Shown: positions 5,016 through 32,309 of the stretch, piece by piece
Layout of the letters: every line of letters begins with the position of its first letter
Position numbering within the stretch: the stretch's first letter is position 1
Source of the DNA: Escherichia phage AV111
Sequence record: OR352941.1
Length of the DNA: 64,000 nt
Direction: 5' to 3' (one strand)
Notes under the pieces: generated by a model
The model's input: the letters and a program-made list of their open reading frames with translations, nothing else
Told to the model about the DNA's origin: nothing
The model's database searches: none
Position numbers and translations under genes: made by a program

Positions 5016-6587
5016 ATGAAATTTAATATCTTAAGTTTGTTTGCTCCATGGGCAAAAATGGACGAACGTGATTACAAAGACCAAGAAAAAGAAAATTTAG
5101 AATCTATCACCACACCAAAATTAGACGACGGCGCTAAAGAATACGAAGTATCTGAAAATGAAGCACAGCAAACATATAATGCTATGTTTCAGAGAATGTT
5201 CGGTAGTCAAGAACCAGGGCTCAAATCAACCCGTGAATTAATCGATACGTATCGAAATTTGATGACGAACTATGAAGCGGATAATGCAGTCTCTGAAATA
5301 GTTTCTGATGCTATCGTATATGAAGATGATACAGAAGTCGTTTCTATAAATTTAGACAACACAAAATTTAGTCCAAATATAAAATCAATGATGTTGGATG
5401 AATTTAACGAAGTGTTGAATCATTTATCTTTCCAACGTAAAGGTTCAGACCATTTTAGGCGTTGGTATGTAGATTCTCGAATTTTCTTCCATAAAATTAT
5501 TGACCCTAAACGCCCTAAAGAAGGTATTAAAGAGCTTCGTCGTTTAGACCCACGTCAAGTTCAATATGTCCGTGAAGTTATTACAACCACTGAAGCCGGT
5601 GTTAAAATAGTCAAGGGTTATAAAGAATATTTCATTTATGACACATCACACGAATCTTATGCTTGTGATGGCCGCATATATGAAGCTGGCACAAAAATAA
5701 AAATCCCTAAAGCCGCGATTGTTTATGCCCATTCTGGTTTAGTTGATTGTTGTGGTAAAAATATCATCGGTTATTTGCATCGGGCTATTAAGCCAGCGAA
5801 CCAATTAAAACTTCTTGAAGATGCCGTTGTAATTTATCGTATTACTCGTGCTCCCGATCGTCGTGTATGGTACGTTGATACAGGTAATATGCCTTCAAGA
5901 AAAGCAGCAGAACATATGCAACATGTTATGAATACGATGAAAAACCGTATTGCATATGATGCTACTACAGGCAAGATTAAAAACCAGCAGCATATTATGT
6001 CGATGACCGAAGATTATTGGTTACAACGACGTGATGGTAAAGCAGTAACAGAAGTTGATACATTACCGGGTGCAGATAATACCGGAAATATGGAAGATGT
6101 ACGTTGGTTCCGTAATGCGCTTTATATGGCTTTACGTATTCCTATTACCCGTATTCCAAGCGACCAAGGTGGTATACAGTTTGATGCTGGTACTTCTATT
6201 ACACGAGATGAATTGTCATTTGGTAAATTTATTCGTGAGCTGCAACATAAATTTGAAGAGATATTCCTAGACCCGCTTAAAACTAATTTAATTCTTAAAG
6301 GAATTATTACAGAAGATGAGTGGAATGATGAAATAAATAATATTAAGATAAAATTTCATCGGGATAGTTATTTCTCGGAATTAAAGGATGCTGAGATTCT
6401 GGAGCGTCGTATTAATATGCTTCAGATGGCCGAACCATTTATTGGTAAATATATTTCTCACAGAACAGCTATGAAAGATATTCTTCAGATGTCTGACGAG
6501 GAAATTGAACAAGAGGCTAAGCAAATTGAAGAAGAGTCGAAAGAGGCTCGTTTCCAAGACCCCGACCAAGAACAAGAGGATTTTTAA
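5016..6587 (+). CDS. 20: Portal vertex protein gp20
   Basis: 523 aa (T4 gp20 524 aa); synteny; late promoter TATAAATA at 4980-4987. Confidence 0.9.
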
Positions 6588-6802
6588 TGGACGATTTAAT
6601 TCAAGCTATTAAATCAAACGACCTCGTTGCTACTCGAAAGTTTTTTGAAAGTGCAATGGCAGAAAAAACGGTTCGTTTGATTGAAGCACGCAAAGCAGAA
6701 ATCGCTTCTCAATTTTTGATTGAAGGCGAAGAACCTGAAGAAGAAAAGAAAGCTAAAGCTTCGGAAGACGACGCTGATGAAGATGATGAGGACGATGAAT
6801 AA
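6587..6802 (+). CDS. 67: Prohead core protein gp67
   Basis: 71 aa acidic C-terminus ([11 protein letters not shown]), position between 20 and 68 as in T4. Confidence 0.8.
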
Positions 6803-7227
6803 TGTATCTTATCCCTGAATCTTATGAATTGGTACTCGAAAATGTCGAAGCACTTATTCCTGAAGCACAGGGCCGAATCGATGCATTGTCTTCTGCTCTC
6901 GATATTGACGATATAAATACTATTATCGAGAACATGCTTGAAACTGAAACGGATTTAGCTGTTGCAATGGCTTCCATTATTAATGAAGAACAGTTAAATG
7001 AGTTTATCGTTAAACATGTTTCTTCTCGTGGTGAAGTCACCCGCACTAAAGACCGTAAAACTCGTGAACGTAACGCGTTCCAAACCACCGGTCTTTCTAA
7101 AGCAAAACGTAGACAAATCGCTCGTAAGGTCGTTAAAGCTAAAAAAGCTAACCCTTCAGGCCAAGTTAAAGGCTTGCGTAAGCGTAAAAAGGCTCTTAAA
7201 CGTCGTAAAGCATTAGGATTAAGCTAA
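6802..7227 (+). CDS. 68: Prohead core protein gp68
   Basis: 141 aa, same size as T4 gp68; basic C-terminal tail; synteny. Confidence 0.8.
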
Positions 7228-7868
7228 TGAATAAACCCGAGTTACTTATTGAAACTTGGGGTCAACCCGGTGAGATTATTGATGGCGTTCCAATGTTGGA
7301 ATCTCATGATGGAAAAGATTCTGGCTTAAAACCAGGGCTTTATATAGAAGGTATTTTTCTTCAGGCAGAGGTTGTTAACCGAAATAAACGTTTATATCCT
7401 AAACGTGTTTTGGAAAAAGCCGTAAGCGACTATATTAAAGAACAAGTCGCAACCAAACAAGCCCTTGGAGAATTAAATCATCCACCTCGTGCAAATGTTG
7501 ACCCTATGCAAGCCGCTATCATTATTGAAGATATGTGGTGGAAAGGAAACGATGTATATGGACGTGCTAGAATTATTGAAGGTGACCATGGTCCCGGCGA
7601 TAAATTAGCTGCTAATATACGAGCTGGTTGGATTCCAGGTGTTTCCTCTCGTGGTCTTGGTTCTTTAACCGACACCAATAAAGGGTACCGTATCGTGAAC
7701 GAAGGATTTAAATTAACCGTCGGCGTAGATGCCGTATGGGGACCTTCTGCTCCAGATGCTTGGGTTACTCCTAAACAAATATCAGAATCAGAAAATTCGG
7801 TGGAAACCACCAAAAACAGTGCTGATGAAGCATTTAAAGCTCTCGCAGAGAGTTTAAAAGCATTATAA
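7227..7868 (+). CDS. 21: Prohead core scaffold protease gp21
   Basis: 213 aa (T4 212 aa); synteny between 68 and 22. Confidence 0.88.
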   Translation: MNKPELLIETWGQPGEIIDGVPMLESHDGKDSGLKPGLYIEGIFLQAEVVNRNKRLYPKRVLEKAVSDYIKEQVATKQALGELNHPPRANVDPMQAAIIIEDMWWKGNDVYGRARIIEGDHGPGDKLAANIRAGWIPGVSSRGLGSLTDTNKGYRIVNEGFKLTVGVDAVWGPSAPDAWVTPKQISESENSVETTKNSADEAFKALAESLKAL

Positions 7869-25827: not shown

Positions 25828-27915
25828 CTATCCTTGGACAAATTTAAACGGAACTGATTCTAAATCCATTAAAGATGCTAACAATTTCAAACCTTTAGGT
25901 GCACTAGTTTTTTCTACAAATGAGGAGAACGATACCGGCTCATCCGATTCGATTTCACCCGTCATAGCAACCACCTCGCCTGTTTCCATGAGAACATCAC
26001 CATCATAAATGACGGCTTCATCCAACTGGTCTGAGGACATGACTTCAGCTTGAATAAATTTAAGGTTGGATTCTAAACCTGCACCGGTGTCAGATGACGC
26101 ATCTGTAATTTTATTTATCTGCAAGAGAATGCCTCTAGGCAAAATAATTTCTTGCTCATTAGGGTGATTACTCAACTGTCCTGGATAAATCACGTTAACT
26201 TTATGGGCGCCATCGATAGCCCATCCAACGTTAACACGGATTTGTTCTGGTGCATGCATAGCTGTTCTTACTTGACTAGGAGAAATAGTAACACCTTCGT
26301 CATTATTGTCAATGTTAAGCTCTTTGCGAACTTCTTCAGGAGCAAGTCCAAGGGCAACGTTCTCTTTAAACCCACCAAAAATAATAGGAGCTAATGAAGT
26401 AGAAACATAGTTTCTGAAGTAGAATACCTTATTTTTAACCATTGCTTCGTAAATAGGCATTCTGATAGACTGAGCTCTATATAACGTTAGTCCTTCAGGT
26501 AAACGGTCTCCATTTAAAAACGCCGAATCAAGACCATCAATAGCGCGTTTAACTTCATCTTCATCCGCAACATCGTAAAAATCTGGTTTATAACGACCTA
26601 ACAACATATTATTGATATCTATATATGCAGAAGAGGCATATTCACGAATAGCTCGTTTTTCAGCAACAGAGTATTGTTTAGGGTCCCGATTCATTGTTAT
26701 ATTAAAGGTGCCTCTAGCCGATTCTCGGGCATAAGTATACATCACATTAGACAAGAACGCTGATTTACGTTGTTTCCAAGTTCTTTCAGATACTTCAGCT
26801 AAAACGTCGTCAGGCAGTTGGAAATTATCACGTCTAAAATCTTCAAACCATTCGTCTTTAATAGAGTCTGCAATTTCATTTGCAGCTTCAACAAAAGCAG
26901 CTAATGCTTTAACAGATGTTGTTTTTTCAGTTTTAATTTTCTTAGCAAACTTTTCTAAAGTTGGCTTAATAACACTACCATAAGAAACTTCATCAGCAAA
27001 TCTAAAGGATTCATCAATACGATTATAAATCTTATTTTCGATATCAGCAACTAAAGTGCCTTTTGCTGTGGATGATGCTTGGGCTAGTACGATTTCATAT
27101 GCTTCAGGAAGTAATTCGGCTGTAGCCGGGCCACTAACTTCTTTAGCAGAATTTTCGTATTTCTGGAATAACTCACCTTCTTGGCGGTCAGCTTCTAAAG
27201 ATTGGCTTGCGGCAATAGCGCGCCGAGAAATTTTAGTACGAGCAATAACAGGCTTATCTTTACGTTTTTCTTCTACAGCAGCAATAGAACCAGCGATAGC
27301 CGTTTCTTTGGTGACCTTTTCACCAGTCTTTTTACTCACATAAACTTCGCCAACATCAGAATCTACTTTCGTGTACAACTCTGTGTTAATGTTAGGGATG
27401 CCTTTAATATCTTCAATGTTGGCATTTTTACGAACCATCATCACATAGGTGTGTTTACCTGTGAATTGATACATTGCCGACAATACTTTAAAACGACCAC
27501 CGGTTTTAGTAGAAACTAAACGAGCAAGAAGAGTTTGAAGCTGATGTCCACGTCCTTTCAATTTCTTGGTAGGGAACCGGAACAGAACTGCATCCATACG
27601 AAGAGCTTTAACCTGTTCATATACTGTATTGAAAATAGTGTTGATTGCATCAATAGGAGCAGGACCAAGGCCATTTTTCAATTCAGCGAGATTACCCTTT
27701 TCAGACAGACTCATAATAACAACATGAGCGTATTTGTCGCCAAGTTTAACTTGTTTTACAGCGTCGCCTTCGGAAAGGTAAGAGAATAAACGAACTACGA
27801 TGTTTGTATCGATATCACCAATTTTCCAGACTTGTGGAACTTTAGCTTTAGGGTTCAAATTGACGACAGGAAGACTGCCTTCAGATTCAAACACTTCATT
27901 TAATTGTTCAGACAT
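25828..27915 (-). CDS. alt: Alt-like mono-ADP-ribosyltransferase (packaged, modifies host RNA polymerase)
   Basis: 695 aa; C-terminal ART motifs YRAQS..(R), VSTSL (STS) and E-containing loop; T4 Alt is 682 aa at this locus. Confidence 0.85.
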   Translation of the reverse strand: MSEQLNEVFESEGSLPVVNLNPKAKVPQVWKIGDIDTNIVVRLFSYLSEGDAVKQVKLGDKYAHVVIMSLSEKGNLAELKNGLGPAPIDAINTIFNTVYEQVKALRMDAVLFRFPTKKLKGRGHQLQTLLARLVSTKTGGRFKVLSAMYQFTGKHTYVMMVRKNANIEDIKGIPNINTELYTKVDSDVGEVYVSKKTGEKVTKETAIAGSIAAVEEKRKDKPVIARTKISRRAIAASQSLEADRQEGELFQKYENSAKEVSGPATAELLPEAYEIVLAQASSTAKGTLVADIENKIYNRIDESFRFADEVSYGSVIKPTLEKFAKKIKTEKTTSVKALAAFVEAANEIADSIKDEWFEDFRRDNFQLPDDVLAEVSERTWKQRKSAFLSNVMYTYARESARGTFNITMNRDPKQYSVAEKRAIREYASSAYIDINNMLLGRYKPDFYDVADEDEVKRAIDGLDSAFLNGDRLPEGLTLYRAQSIRMPIYEAMVKNKVFYFRNYVSTSLAPIIFGGFKENVALGLAPEEVRKELNIDNNDEGVTISPSQVRTAMHAPEQIRVNVGWAIDGAHKVNVIYPGQLSNHPNEQEIILPRGILLQINKITDASSDTGAGLESNLKFIQAEVMSSDQLDEAVIYDGDVLMETGEVVAMTGEIESDEPVSFSSFVEKTSAPKGLKLLASLMDLESVPFKFVQG

Positions 27916-27956
27916 AGTGTTTTCCTTTTAGTAATAATTTATATTTATGCCAAAAA

Positions 27957-27970
27957 GAGCCCGAAGGCTC
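27957..27970 (-). terminator. Hairpin gagccUUCGggctc plus U-run (minus sense) downstream of alt
   Basis: Stem-loop with UUCG loop in the minus-strand sense, followed by UUUUG. Confidence 0.5.
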
Positions 27971-28159
27971 TTAATCCACAATCGGGAGCAAAGTACGATA
28001 AACTTCAAAATTAGGGCCTTTTTCGTACCCATTAACGTTATCTACGAAAACCCGATACGAATTTTCATTAGGAAAATCTAATATAATCTGAGAGCAAGAG
28101 GTGGAAACATCTCCACCATCCTTCTTAGCTACAATAACTGTTTCTAAATAAGCTTTCAT
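27971..28159 (-). CDS. Hypothetical small protein
   Basis: ORF track 69 aa; probable start MKAYLETV overlapping the gene 30 stop. Confidence 0.45.
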   Translation of the reverse strand: MKAYLETVIVAKKDGGDVSTSCSQIILDFPNENSYRVFVDNVNGYEKGPNFEVYRTLLPIVD

Positions 28160-29652
28160 TATAAACCTGTCTGGGACCACGGTCCAAATACGTCTTCAAA
28201 CGAATCCGCTTCTGTTTTATCAAAACGGAACCCTTTAATAATTGGAAGGAAAATACCTACAGTACCTTCACGGCCTTTAGAATGAACCCAACCATTACAT
28301 TCACAATCAGCGATACGTCCAATTAATTTACCTTCACGAGCTTCGGTCATTAATCGTTCACGGTCTAAATCATGACGCTCGTCTAAAGGAATAAGAACCT
28401 TTACACCGTCAACTGTTTTATGAGTTGTATCTTTAAAACCTGAACCGCAATCGGTTGTAATACGACGACAACGTGATACGAGTTCGACACCACCTAATTT
28501 GTTAGGGTCTTTAGAGTGTTCATAGTATCCTACAACTTCTAAAGCGATATCAATAACTTCTTTAAATTTAATTAGGTTCTTAGAACGTTTGTTTTCCCAA
28601 TATGAATCACGGTTTTTAAGGATAATACCTTCAAGACCTTGGTCAACATATTTTTTATAAACCACTTTAGCTTCGTCAAGATTACGAACTAACTGATTTT
28701 CAATTGGCTCAATTCGTTTAAAGCCTTCAGCCATATTTTCAAGAGCAGCAAAACGAACATCGTATTTCTGACCTTTAATTTTGCCATCAGAATAGACTTC
28801 ATCTAAAGGAACATAGTCCCAGGCTTGAAGAACCATACCTTCAGCTTCTTTAGGAGAAATAGTCCCTTGAAGAGATTTATTTGCTAAACCGTTTGAAGTG
28901 CTACGGTCCGCAACTTGTACTTCTTCGGATTCTTCATTATCACCAAATAAGAACGACAGGTCATTTCCTGAGCTCACAGCCTTTTTAATATCAAATGAAT
29001 GGTAAACTAATTCACCGTCGATTAAAACCCCATTAGGGTGTCTTTCACGAGCTTCTTTAGTCATTTCCATTAGTTCATCCGCTAATAGGGTAAGACCATG
29101 GTATTCATTACCAGCACGAGAAAAGAATTGAACACCATCATCGCGAACTTCAGCGAAACAACGAGCGCCATCGGCTTTTAATTGAGCAAATGCAGGCCAT
29201 TTAATATTTTTAGTAATCAATTTCTCATCATATGCAGATGCTAACATCTGTGGTTGCAATTGAATAAGTCCAGGCCACACCTTATTCGCGATAGACACTG
29301 AAGCACCTACTTCAAGGTCGCGCATCATTACACGACGAAGGACTTCTACATCATCAGGTTTACCGTCAGCGATATAACCCATGAGCTCTTTAATTGCAGC
29401 ATTACCAGTGAGTTTACGAGTGGCTAATGTGAACTCAATAAAATCCAACATGTCATCTAATTCAAGAAGACCATACGCTTGAGACCTTTCACCTGGTCCT
29501 GGCCATTTCTTAATATAATACTGGATACCACGTGCATATGTTAAACGATACACACGTTCAAGTAATTTGTTGTCCTTATTTTTCTTAAGGATTTCCTGTT
29601 TTGTTTTAGTAGAACCGATCGCAGCTATTTGGTTTAAAATATCTAAAATCAT
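28159..29652 (-). CDS. 30: ATP-dependent DNA ligase gp30
   Basis: 497 aa; adenylation motif KADGAR; N-terminus MILDILNQIAAIGSTKTKQEIL matches T4 DNA ligase. Confidence 0.93.
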   Translation of the reverse strand: MILDILNQIAAIGSTKTKQEILKKNKDNKLLERVYRLTYARGIQYYIKKWPGPGERSQAYGLLELDDMLDFIEFTLATRKLTGNAAIKELMGYIADGKPDDVEVLRRVMMRDLEVGASVSIANKVWPGLIQLQPQMLASAYDEKLITKNIKWPAFAQLKADGARCFAEVRDDGVQFFSRAGNEYHGLTLLADELMEMTKEARERHPNGVLIDGELVYHSFDIKKAVSSGNDLSFLFGDNEESEEVQVADRSTSNGLANKSLQGTISPKEAEGMVLQAWDYVPLDEVYSDGKIKGQKYDVRFAALENMAEGFKRIEPIENQLVRNLDEAKVVYKKYVDQGLEGIILKNRDSYWENKRSKNLIKFKEVIDIALEVVGYYEHSKDPNKLGGVELVSRCRRITTDCGSGFKDTTHKTVDGVKVLIPLDERHDLDRERLMTEAREGKLIGRIADCECNGWVHSKGREGTVGIFLPIIKGFRFDKTEADSFEDVFGPWSQTGL

Positions 29653-29918
29653 TTGATGTCCTCGATTTTGGTTACGGTTCTATTATAAGCCACTTCATCT
29701 AGAAGCGATTTCAGCGTTTTCTGATAAGTTGTAATCCATTTACCGAGTCCTTCAACATAGTATTCTGAAATGTAGATGAACCCTTGTTCAACACACTCTT
29801 TAAATATTTCTGCGTCTTTTACTGAACGAAACAATGACCAGTCTCGAAAGAACATGTTAACGTGACCGTAGTCACGTGTGGTATTTTTGCCATCTGTAAT
29901 ATCATGAACTACAAACAT
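29649..29918 (-). CDS. Hypothetical protein (30.1-like)
   Basis: 89-aa ORF immediately upstream of gene 30, translationally coupled. Confidence 0.6.
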   Translation of the reverse strand: MFVVHDITDGKNTTRDYGHVNMFFRDWSLFRSVKDAEIFKECVEQGFIYISEYYVEGLGKWITTYQKTLKSLLDEVAYNRTVTKIEDIK

Positions 29919-29927
29919 AATTAACCC

Positions 29928-30752
29928 TTAACAATTTATAGACCAAGTCCATTTAGACGAATCTAAAGGAAAGTTTTGAATCGTCCACCACGGCTGCATA
30001 TCAGTTGGTCCTGGGGTTCGCCAGGTATATGGAGTACGTGTTGTCGAGGGGCCACCAATTTGATTAGGCCATGCACCTGGACTTGTTGCACCAGATTCTT
30101 TAAGCAAATCCGCCAATCGTTTTAAAAGGTCTTCACGATCTGAATCTGAATTATTCTTAGGCAGAACCAAACGAGATTCAATATCATCCCACGTGTGTAC
30201 ACGTTGTGCAGTACGAGGAATGGCATCACGTTCACCACGAGCCAACCAATAAATCGGTACATTAAGAATTTCTGCCGCATGGTCACAATGATGAGCTAAA
30301 TCGTCAACGTAACAAATTACGTTATATTTTGTTTTAGCTAGTTCGAATAATTGTTCCTTTGAAGAATCATGACCACACATCATTACTTCAGAGAAAGCGC
30401 CTGGGAACAAAGCATTCAAATTAAATTGTCTATTCAATCGAGCATCAATTGAATCACCTAGCGCCGTCACGGCTACAAAATTATAGTCTTCTTTTAGTTT
30501 ATTGATAACTCGAAGAGCATCAGAATAAGGCGCTAAGTAACGAATAAAATCAGAGCTATTATATTTTTCTATTAATTGTTTACCAAGGTTATCGTCGGTA
30601 TTGAACAGTTTACCAGGAGAAATAAATTTTTCGTCCTGAATCATTTTTAAAATATGTTCTAATGGAAGATTATATTTTTGGGCAAAATAAGGAAGTCCAG
30701 ATTGCCAGCTTAAACATACACCATCAATATCAGTTAAAATAGTAGGCTTCAT
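29928..30752 (-). CDS. HAD-like phosphatase/nucleotidase family protein (30.2-like) with unusual Pro/Trp-rich C-terminal tail
   Basis: N-terminal HAD motif I LTDIDGV; C-terminal ~55 aa low-complexity (SPGAWPNQIGGPSTTRTPYTWRTPGPTDMQPWW). Confidence 0.6.
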   Translation of the reverse strand: MKPTILTDIDGVCLSWQSGLPYFAQKYNLPLEHILKMIQDEKFISPGKLFNTDDNLGKQLIEKYNSSDFIRYLAPYSDALRVINKLKEDYNFVAVTALGDSIDARLNRQFNLNALFPGAFSEVMMCGHDSSKEQLFELAKTKYNVICYVDDLAHHCDHAAEILNVPIYWLARGERDAIPRTAQRVHTWDDIESRLVLPKNNSDSDREDLLKRLADLLKESGATSPGAWPNQIGGPSTTRTPYTWRTPGPTDMQPWWTIQNFPLDSSKWTWSINC

Positions 30753-31216
30753 AAAGAGTCTCTTAATAGGTTTAACACATCAATAAATTCAGCTTCGGTT
30801 AGTATTGTATCATCTTTTGTTAGACCACTAGCCATGCTGTGCTTCAAAACTTTTCCTTTCGAGGCTTGTAATGCATCACGAAAGCCCTTGTTTTGGATCG
30901 CTGCTTCAAAATATGCATTTGTGTATAATTCTTTCCACGCCGCGGAGTATCTTGAAAACGGAACTCCAAGCCAAAAGAGGGTCCCACGGTCCTGAGCTCT
31001 AGCATAAGACCTTCCAGCTTGTTGGGCGGCAAGCCCGGATAACCCAAATATACGACGTTGTTGTTCAACATTTTTCACCTTACACCCTTGGAGGAATCCT
31101 TCAAGACCTCCGAATTGAATACCATCCATAACAAAAGGCCATTGGGCGAAATTACTTAATGCACATGACGGCCACTTGAAATTACTTCTTATTTCTAATT
31201 CAGACATCTTTAACAC
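30749..31216 (-). CDS. NADAR (YbiA/DUF1768) family protein, putative ADP-ribosyl-nucleic-acid hydrolase (30.3-like)
   Basis: 155 aa; NADAR-like segments SNFAQWPF, GIQFGGLEGFLQGCK, WKELYTNAYFEAAIQNKGFRDAL. Confidence 0.7.
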   Translation of the reverse strand: MLKMSELEIRSNFKWPSCALSNFAQWPFVMDGIQFGGLEGFLQGCKVKNVEQQRRIFGLSGLAAQQAGRSYARAQDRGTLFWLGVPFSRYSAAWKELYTNAYFEAAIQNKGFRDALQASKGKVLKHSMASGLTKDDTILTEAEFIDVLNLLRDSL

Positions 31217-31418
31217 TTATAATTTCAACATCAGCCCAATGACCGTAACTAGGCAGACGGTCTTCAATGGATAAACCACCGTCATTTTTAAGCATTTTAA
31301 TTGACGTAATGTATGGTTCTAAACGGTTTTCTGCATAATATGGAAAAACGTCTGTTACACGATAAGTAACTTCGATCATTTCCGTACCAAACAATTTCTG
31401 GATTAATTTATTCAACAT
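31200..31418 (-). CDS. Hypothetical protein (30.x cluster)
   Basis: 72-aa ORF in a tightly packed same-strand array. Confidence 0.5.
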   Translation of the reverse strand: MLNKLIQKLFGTEMIEVTYRVTDVFPYYAENRLEPYITSIKMLKNDGGLSIEDRLPSYGHWADVEIISVKDV

Positions 31419-31659: not shown

Positions 31660-32274
31660 CTACTTAATGAAATTAATTTCTACCGGATGAACAACAGGTT
31701 GAGCAGTGATATATTGAGTAATTGCTTTCATGACTAGAGCTTCAGAACCAGGATTTTTCTCAACGAATTCACGTGCTAGGTTATGAGCTTCGAGTTCACT
31801 CAATAAACCGGAACGCTGGCATCCACGGTCTTGAGTACCCTGTTCAGATAAAAGGACTACTACATATTTTTCATCGTCGTAGGGCTTAGCCAGTTGAGCA
31901 AATGTTCCTTTACTTCCAAAAGGAGAGTTATGTCGCCACATCACGCCGTGAGGAGTTTCAACCTTCGTATATTCGTGCGGTCCATTTTTCTTAGTTTCTT
32001 GATGTGGAACTTCATAAACCTTAGGGTTAGGACATTCAATAAAATGCTCATCTAAATCGGTCGAGAATATTAAAGTAAAACAATTACTGAATTTACCAAC
32101 ACCGGCCTGATAAATTTTACCTTCAGAAGTTCTAATTTCACAAACTGAGCCGGCATCAGTAACTTCTAAAACTTCAAAAGGCTCAATAAGGTCATATGAG
32201 AACATGTTTTTAAGGCGTGGAGTAATATCCCCATTTTTAAAATTCATTTTATAAAAAGTATTAACTTTAAACAT
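31660..32274 (-). CDS. Hypothetical protein (30.x cluster); start moved to internal Met after SD
   Basis: ORF track 214 aa from 32304; the first 10 codons lie in hairpin gggagcUUCGgccccc (32286-32302); SD GAGGA precedes MFKVNTFYKM. Confidence 0.55.
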   Translation of the reverse strand: MFKVNTFYKMNFKNGDITPRLKNMFSYDLIEPFEVLEVTDAGSVCEIRTSEGKIYQAGVGKFSNCFTLIFSTDLDEHFIECPNPKVYEVPHQETKKNGPHEYTKVETPHGVMWRHNSPFGSKGTFAQLAKPYDDEKYVVVLLSEQGTQDRGCQRSGLLSELEAHNLAREFVEKNPGSEALVMKAITQYITAQPVVHPVEINFIK

Positions 32275-32309
32275 AATTTCCTCAGTGGGGGCCGAAGCTC
32301 CCAATTAAT

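Follow-up and report, generated by a model that had tools for sequence, protein, structure and literature searches.

A full-length adfN gene, predicted to counter DarT1, in the RB69-like Escherichia phage AV111

Gene 30.3 of phage T4 encodes AdfN, the anti-DarT factor NADAR (Johannesman et al., Nat Commun 2025, PMC11825919), which removes DarT1-made ADP-ribose (ADPr) from DNA and is necessary and sufficient for resistance to the toxin-antitoxin system DarTG1 (Nat Commun 2025; Toxins 2024). Here we analyse the corresponding gene, adfN, and its neighbours in a 64,000-nt stretch of Escherichia phage AV111 (OR352941.1; hereafter the window, meaning the whole stretch), which belongs to Mosigvirus, a genus of RB69-like, T4-type phages. 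A sequence-only reading of positions 25828–31216 had described an alt gene, a NADAR-family gene and a gene for a HAD-like protein, and all three are present there, on the minus strand. The adfN gene, the fold and enzymology of its product and its anti-DarTG1 role are already known (published 2023–2025); the analysis below concerns the allele carried by the window.

AdfN was discovered through RB69 × T2/T4 chimeras selected on DarTG1 cells (PMC11825919 and others). T4 and T2 no longer form plaques on such cells once adfN is deleted, and ectopic adfN rescues RB69, which is DarTG1-sensitive because of a T insertion at nt 411 of the gene (PMC11825919 and others). In vitro, T4 AdfN strips ADPr from DarT1-modified DNA and the E36A variant is inactive; the thymidine-specific system DarTG2 is not countered (PMC11825919 and others). 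Removal of the C-terminal helix reduces activity (published T4 work). An independent in vitro study found that the T4 protein hydrolyses guanine-ADPr, and the NADARs tested cleave guanine-ADPr DNA but not thymidine-ADPr DNA. In a T4 transposon screen, for which all values given here are those of the rows listed, 30.3 is conditionally essential on DarTG1 (log2 fold change −7.25), and it is non-essential without DarTG1 (27 of 28 TA sites disrupted). Among 17 Tevenvirinae, DarTG1 resistance goes along with a full-length allele, and this holds for all T-even phages tested.

In the window, adfN lies at 30749–31207 (minus strand) and encodes a predicted NADAR-family DNA ADP-ribosyl-glycohydrolase. 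Two start codons are available, an ATG at 31207 giving 152 aa and a GTG at 31216 giving 155 aa. The ATG is most likely the true start, because it fits the annotated 152-aa gp30.3 of T4, the starts of homologues and the published numbering of E36 and K43. The gene that the sequence-only reading placed at 30749–31216 (155 aa) thus stands, while its start is better set at 31207. The product matches Pfam Phage_30_3 (PF08010) with 232.8 bits against a cut-off of 36 (E 1.4e-69) and is identical to T4 gp30.3, a protein of equal length, at 149 of 152 residues (98%). The codons of the catalytic residues are all in place, with E36 at 31102–31100, K43 at 31081–31079 and the phage-type H123 at 30841–30839. 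The protein has the alpha+beta NADAR fold; in the structure model, the C-terminal helix (aa 138–151) is present and H123 directly follows the last strand (residues 120–122).

An exhaustive profile search with the adfN family yielded 1,377 cluster representatives at E ≤ 0.001, and conservation was measured on an alignment of 60 diverse family members. In this alignment every sequence has N19, E36, H123 and T137, and at least 90% have K43. The catalytic Glu and phosphate-binding Lys of described NADARs are E43 and K50 in PnNADAR and E88 and K95 in E. coli C7. A hidden Markov model search of the PDB with the family profile matched E. coli YbiA (E 0.004), and hhalign of the family against YbiA returned a probability of 94.5% (E 8e-8), with E36 and K43 falling on the YbiA Glu and Lys. 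Direct sequence search of the PDB with gp30.3 gave no matches, and an NCBIfam search gave nothing useful. Membership of the adfN product in the NADAR family, as proposed by the sequence-only reading, is supported by the fold, the profile-profile comparison and the retained catalytic residues.

The phage protein differs in several respects from cellular members of this family. E. coli YbiA (PDB 2B3W), which is linked to hydrolysis of riboflavin intermediates, and the Phytophthora NADAR (PDB 8BAU) share about 20% sequence identity with it, and at the position of the phage-family His the YbiA family carries Glu. The NADAR antitoxins of the DarG1 type, associated with DarT1 (E. coli C7; Geobacter lovleyi, PDB 8BAT), carry a clade-specific Asp, again replaced by His in the phage family; unlike them, the window gene has no adjacent DarT gene and its product no N-terminal extension. 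In the literature, His in place of the last-strand Glu or Asp marks the phage NADAR clade, whose members are called 'gp30.3 proteins'.

The window allele shares with T4 AdfN the residues E36, K43 and H123, the C-terminal helix, the position between 30.4 and 30.2, the overlapping start and stop codons and the PM30.2 sequence, but sits in a Mosigvirus backbone. The 5.4 kb flagged at the outset is 98.2% identical over its whole length to other Mosigvirus genomes, among them PhAPEC2 and moha, and backbone and gene order are shared at genus level with RB69. RB69 gp30.3, however, has lost its last 15 residues, comprising the C-terminal helix, through the frameshift caused by its extra T at gene nt 411, and DNA alignment shows that this insertion is absent from the window adfN. 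Within adfN, a patch at 30850–31151 (minus strand) is of the T4 (Tequatrovirus) type, with Mosigvirus-type sequence on both sides. Specifically, in alignment columns 79–400 the window is identical to T4 at 317 of 322 positions and to PhAPEC2 or moha at 293 of 322, while in the 5′ 78 columns it is identical to PhAPEC2 at 78 of 78 and to T4 at 58 of 69. The best matches to adfN alone are Tequatroviruses (97.2–97.6% identity), with none above 97.6% among 50,697 phage genomes. Judged from these alignments, the window adfN is a natural mosaic, in which about 300 bp of T4 type form the core within a Mosigvirus backbone; this is a minor new point.

Other database copies of adfN vary widely in quality. 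Most records label the gene "hypothetical protein". The PhAPEC2 30.3 (6422–6802, annotated as 126 aa) was considered as a truncation and rejected, since its DNA encodes a full 152-aa AdfN and the annotated start is simply too far downstream. In many T-even phages and contigs adfN is truncated or fused to the N-termini of gp30.7 or gp30.8, and several of these products lack E36/K43; their carriers are predicted to be DarTG1-sensitive, unless the defects are assembly errors. The window also conserves open reading frame (ORF) 30.3′ (75 aa, 30844–31071, minus strand), which the T4 annotation lists as an out-of-frame product from within gene 30.3, and some database 'proteins' are hybrids of the 30.3 and 30.3′ frames.

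Taken together, we assign a probability of about 0.9 to the reading that 30749–31207 encodes an intact AdfN that counters DarT1 ADP-ribosylation and confers DarTG1 resistance. Fold, catalytic residues, full length, 98% identity to T4 and gene order come from the present analysis; activity and phenotype come from the published T4 orthologue, and we infer that they transfer to the window allele. Synthesised early in infection or midway through it, AdfN would act as a stand-alone NADAR-fold glycohydrolase that cuts the N-glycosidic bond linking ADP-ribose to guanine, a modification placed on phage DNA by host DarT1. Cleavage of this bond would restore replication and render the phage resistant to the DarTG1 defence. 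Because of the 149 of 152 identical residues, the presence of E36, K43, H123 and the C-terminal helix and the lack of the RB69 insertion, we predict that the window AdfN is active and the phage DarTG1-resistant, unlike RB69. The suggestion that the NADAR protein might counter host DarT-type toxins is thus borne out for the 98%-identical T4 protein.

Several points weigh against this assignment. Hhalign places H123 within one residue of the YbiA catalytic Glu, not exactly on it. The window protein alone has no match to Pfam NADAR (PF08719) at E ≤ 0.1, so that NADAR membership rests on fold and profile-profile evidence; nine of the 60 family members match this Pfam family weakly (best E 1e-4). 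The experiments concern the T4 protein, from which the window allele differs at three positions (K11/R, A89/P and M125/I). Furthermore, in uninfected cells T4 AdfN gives no rescue from DarT1 toxicity, a difference from the DarG1-type antitoxins, and it is reported to reach full activity only with a further T-even factor.

A different role for the NADAR protein was envisaged by the sequence-only reading, which spoke of an ADP-ribosylation "toolkit" and of tuning the phage's own modification, with the protein erasing marks written by Alt, ModA and ModB. The proximity on which this idea builds is real, as alt and 30.3 lie within 3 kb of each other in T4, RB69, the window and an Acinetobacter T4-like phage; a 2022 comparative-genomics survey had already placed NADARs, next to Alt, near ADP-ribosyltransferases (ARTs) in T4-like phages. 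In the window, four genes (alt.1, 30, 30.1 and 30.2) separate alt from adfN, rather than the distance of three genes first given. A terminator and a late-promoter-like element, however, lie between alt and the 30.x genes. The terminator, between alt.1 and alt, is at 27952–27972 (minus strand; 27955–27972 for the hairpin with its T run). Its 7-bp stem closes on a UUCG loop and runs into a stretch of T, with a fold energy of −14.2 kcal/mol (z = −3.0), and an ARNold terminator is annotated at the corresponding site of PhAPEC2. The promoter-like element, TATAAATT at 27936–27943 (minus strand), matches the T4 late-promoter consensus TATAAATA at 7 of 8 positions and ends 21 nt upstream of the alt ATG, where it may serve as the late promoter of alt. 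In the Acinetobacter phage, moreover, alt is inverted, lying on the opposite strand from 30.3, 30.2 and the ligase gene. The chemistry also argues against an eraser of phage-made marks, as the R-S-ExE motifs of Alt are typical of arginine-specific protein ARTs, while the tested NADARs act on guanine-ADPr DNA. The dispensability of T4 30.3 without DarTG1 points the same way, and among the rows listed for the T4 screen alt (log2 fold change −0.01), modA (+0.11) and modB (+0.13) show no fitness change on DarTG1, nor does adfA/61.2 (−0.34). We therefore regard a writer-eraser partnership as very improbable; the adjacency of alt and adfN is conserved gene order and not a functional unit.

Nor is the protein likely to act on a small molecule, either as a YbiA-type N-glycosidase of riboflavin intermediates or by degrading soluble ADPr-derived immune signals. 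The relationship to YbiA would allow for such a substrate, but the phage family has His at the position of the YbiA Glu, its closest relatives are reported as DarT1-associated NADARs, and both DNA de-ADP-ribosylation and a DarTG1-specific phenotype have been shown for the T4 protein; as with the writer-eraser partnership, we give this reading very little credence. Least probable of all is that the window adfN has decayed to a non-functional copy as in RB69. The RB69-like Mosigvirus backbone and the frequency of truncated or fused 30.3 products in databases would favour decay, but the window frame is full-length without insertion or deletion relative to T4, catalytic residues and C-terminal helix are present, and DarTG1 resistance tracks with full-length alleles in all T-even phages tested. 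An intact, DarT1-directed AdfN accordingly remains the preferred reading.

The alt gene (25828–27915, minus strand) encodes a 695-aa protein that matches Pfam ADPrib_exo_Tox (PF03496) with 96.5 bits against a cut-off of 23.4, and PHROG 802, 'Alt-like RNA polymerase ADP-ribosyltransferase', over its full length (E 2.5e-261). The R-S-E motifs recognised from sequence were located as R480 (LYR), S505-T-S507 and E587-Q-E589; they lie inside the Pfam ART match and are conserved with T4 Alt, the virion-packaged RNA polymerase ADP-ribosyltransferase, with which the protein aligns end to end. The gene likewise follows gp54 and alt.-3 as in T4, but the T4 duplication remnants alt.-1 and alt.-2 are missing from the window and identity to T4 Alt is only 43%. 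Direct sequence search of the PDB with Alt gave no matches. Alt is probably a virion-packaged arginine ADP-ribosyltransferase that would modify host proteins and be expressed from its own late transcription unit, with the neighbours in the block having independent functions held together by the conserved T4 gene order. Exact copies of TATAAATA number 19 in the window against 7.3 expected; a sigma-70 promoter scan gave 33 sites against 24.7 ± 5.6 expected, which is not above background, missed the alt.1/alt hairpin and was not used. In RB69 (NC_004928), alt (5310–7397) lacks 1 nt near codon 472 relative to the window and regains the frame through 1 extra nt near codon 529, leaving about 57 codons, including those of the catalytic R and S-T-S, out of frame; these paired frameshifts reflect either sequencing error or an inactive RB69 Alt.

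Gene 30.2 (29928–30752, minus strand), whose start overlaps the adfN stop (ATGA), encodes a HAD-fold putative phosphatase. In the predicted layout, the HAD fold spans aa 1 to about 195, followed by a helix (aa 202–219) and a disordered Pro/Trp/Thr-rich tail (about aa 225–274). All four HAD motifs (I–IV; DxD, T/S, K, DD) are present within the HAD fold, and residues 1 to about 195 are strongly conserved, with D8-x-D10, K132 and D150-D151 invariant and T96 nearly so. The score against Pfam HAD_2 is 16 bits, below the gathering cut-off of 23.8, so that HAD membership rests on fold and motifs. Compared with HAD phosphatases such as the 5′(3′)-deoxyribonucleotidase-like 3BWV, gp30.2 differs in this sub-threshold score and in the addition of a disordered, clade-variable Pro/Trp-rich tail.

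The sequence-only reading had pointed to both the HAD-like protein and its odd C-terminal tail, and both were found; its suggestion that the tail is a frameshifted or fused terminus did not hold. The last approximately 80 residues contain 9 Pro, 9 Thr and 6 Trp, and comparison of the reading frame with related phages shows a pattern (TWRTPG and P-x-W-Y) that is kept in frame in T4, RB69 and relatives of 45–78% identity; RB69 carries an in-frame deletion of three codons in the tail. The other two frames are closed and lack the 'GIEY...NRQPT' motif of other homologues. The tail is therefore a conserved, in-frame and predicted disordered segment, which is absent in some homologues (Acinetobacter and Shewanella phages). 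A sequence identical to PM30.2, a middle promoter annotated in T4 (promoter feature of X53848), lies inside the adfN 3′ end at 30804–30829 (minus strand; exact 26-nt match) and would drive 30.2.

We also considered gp30.2 as a partner of AdfN and rejected it. Insertions in T4 30.2 are neutral on DarTG1 in the rows listed (log2 fold change −0.12); in Shewanella phages 30.2 adjoins the ligase gene but 30.3 is missing there. A 136-aa gene lies between 30.2 and 30.3 in another T4-like phage, and the neighbour of a distant AdfN homologue does not resemble HAD proteins. The gp30.2 protein is probably a HAD-type phosphatase with a disordered tail, and its gene is linked more closely to that of the ligase than to adfN. 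In a metagenomic T4-like contig (2431–3266), two ORFs of 170 and 107 aa occupy the 30.2 position and may represent a split 30.2.

Gene 30.4 (72 aa, 31200–31418, minus strand; PHROG 2042), which at its stop shares 8 nt with the beginning of adfN, encodes a protein with 53% identity to T4 gp30.4 and 85% to RB69 gp30.4. In the T4 screen on DarTG1, 30.4 is, besides 30.3, the sole significantly depleted gene among the rows listed, if modestly so (log2 fold change −1.79, adjusted p 0.014), with 30.2 and alt not depleted, and it is the only non-essential candidate in those rows for the postulated T-even factor that would potentiate AdfN. Identity of gp30.4 with this factor is nevertheless unlikely, as a polar effect of the insertions on adfN expression is the simpler reading and probably accounts for the depletion. 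No gp30.4 homologue is recognisable beside adfN in two more distant T4-like phages.

The wider region follows the T4 plan. From 25.4 to 33.1 kb every gene is on the minus strand, and the order alt.-3, alt, alt.1, 30, 30.1, 30.2, 30.3, 30.4 and onward is that of T4 and RB69. Between alt and 30.2 lie alt.1 (27971–28159; 62 aa, Phage_blade family, Pfam PF24647, E 1.7e-28), whose start (ATG at 28159) and the ligase stop overlap as TAATG, gene 30 for the ATP-dependent DNA ligase (28159–29652; Pfam DNA_ligase_A_M, E 1.9e-26) and gene 30.1 (DUF3045; 29649–29918; Pfam PF11243, E 1.6e-25). Pfam and PHROG assignments are concordant across the block from alt to 30.3, and the family matches of its genes are far beyond chance. 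Further upstream, an ORF of 204–214 aa (31660–32304, minus strand; PHROG 17531, no Pfam match) occupies the place of 30.6 in T4, RB69 and PhAPEC2 and also occurs in phage moha; the 30.6 position is a variable accessory slot.

The initial observation of a phage NADAR and the guess at its function are thus supported, for a gene that had already been published. As a discovery this carries little weight, and its value lies in the annotation of the AV111 allele and in the prediction of resistance that it allows. Laboratory T2/T4 × RB69 chimeras revealed the gene, and the T4-type patch in adfN is their counterpart in nature; the mosaic, as read from the alignments, shows a counter-defence allele moving between genera by recombination.

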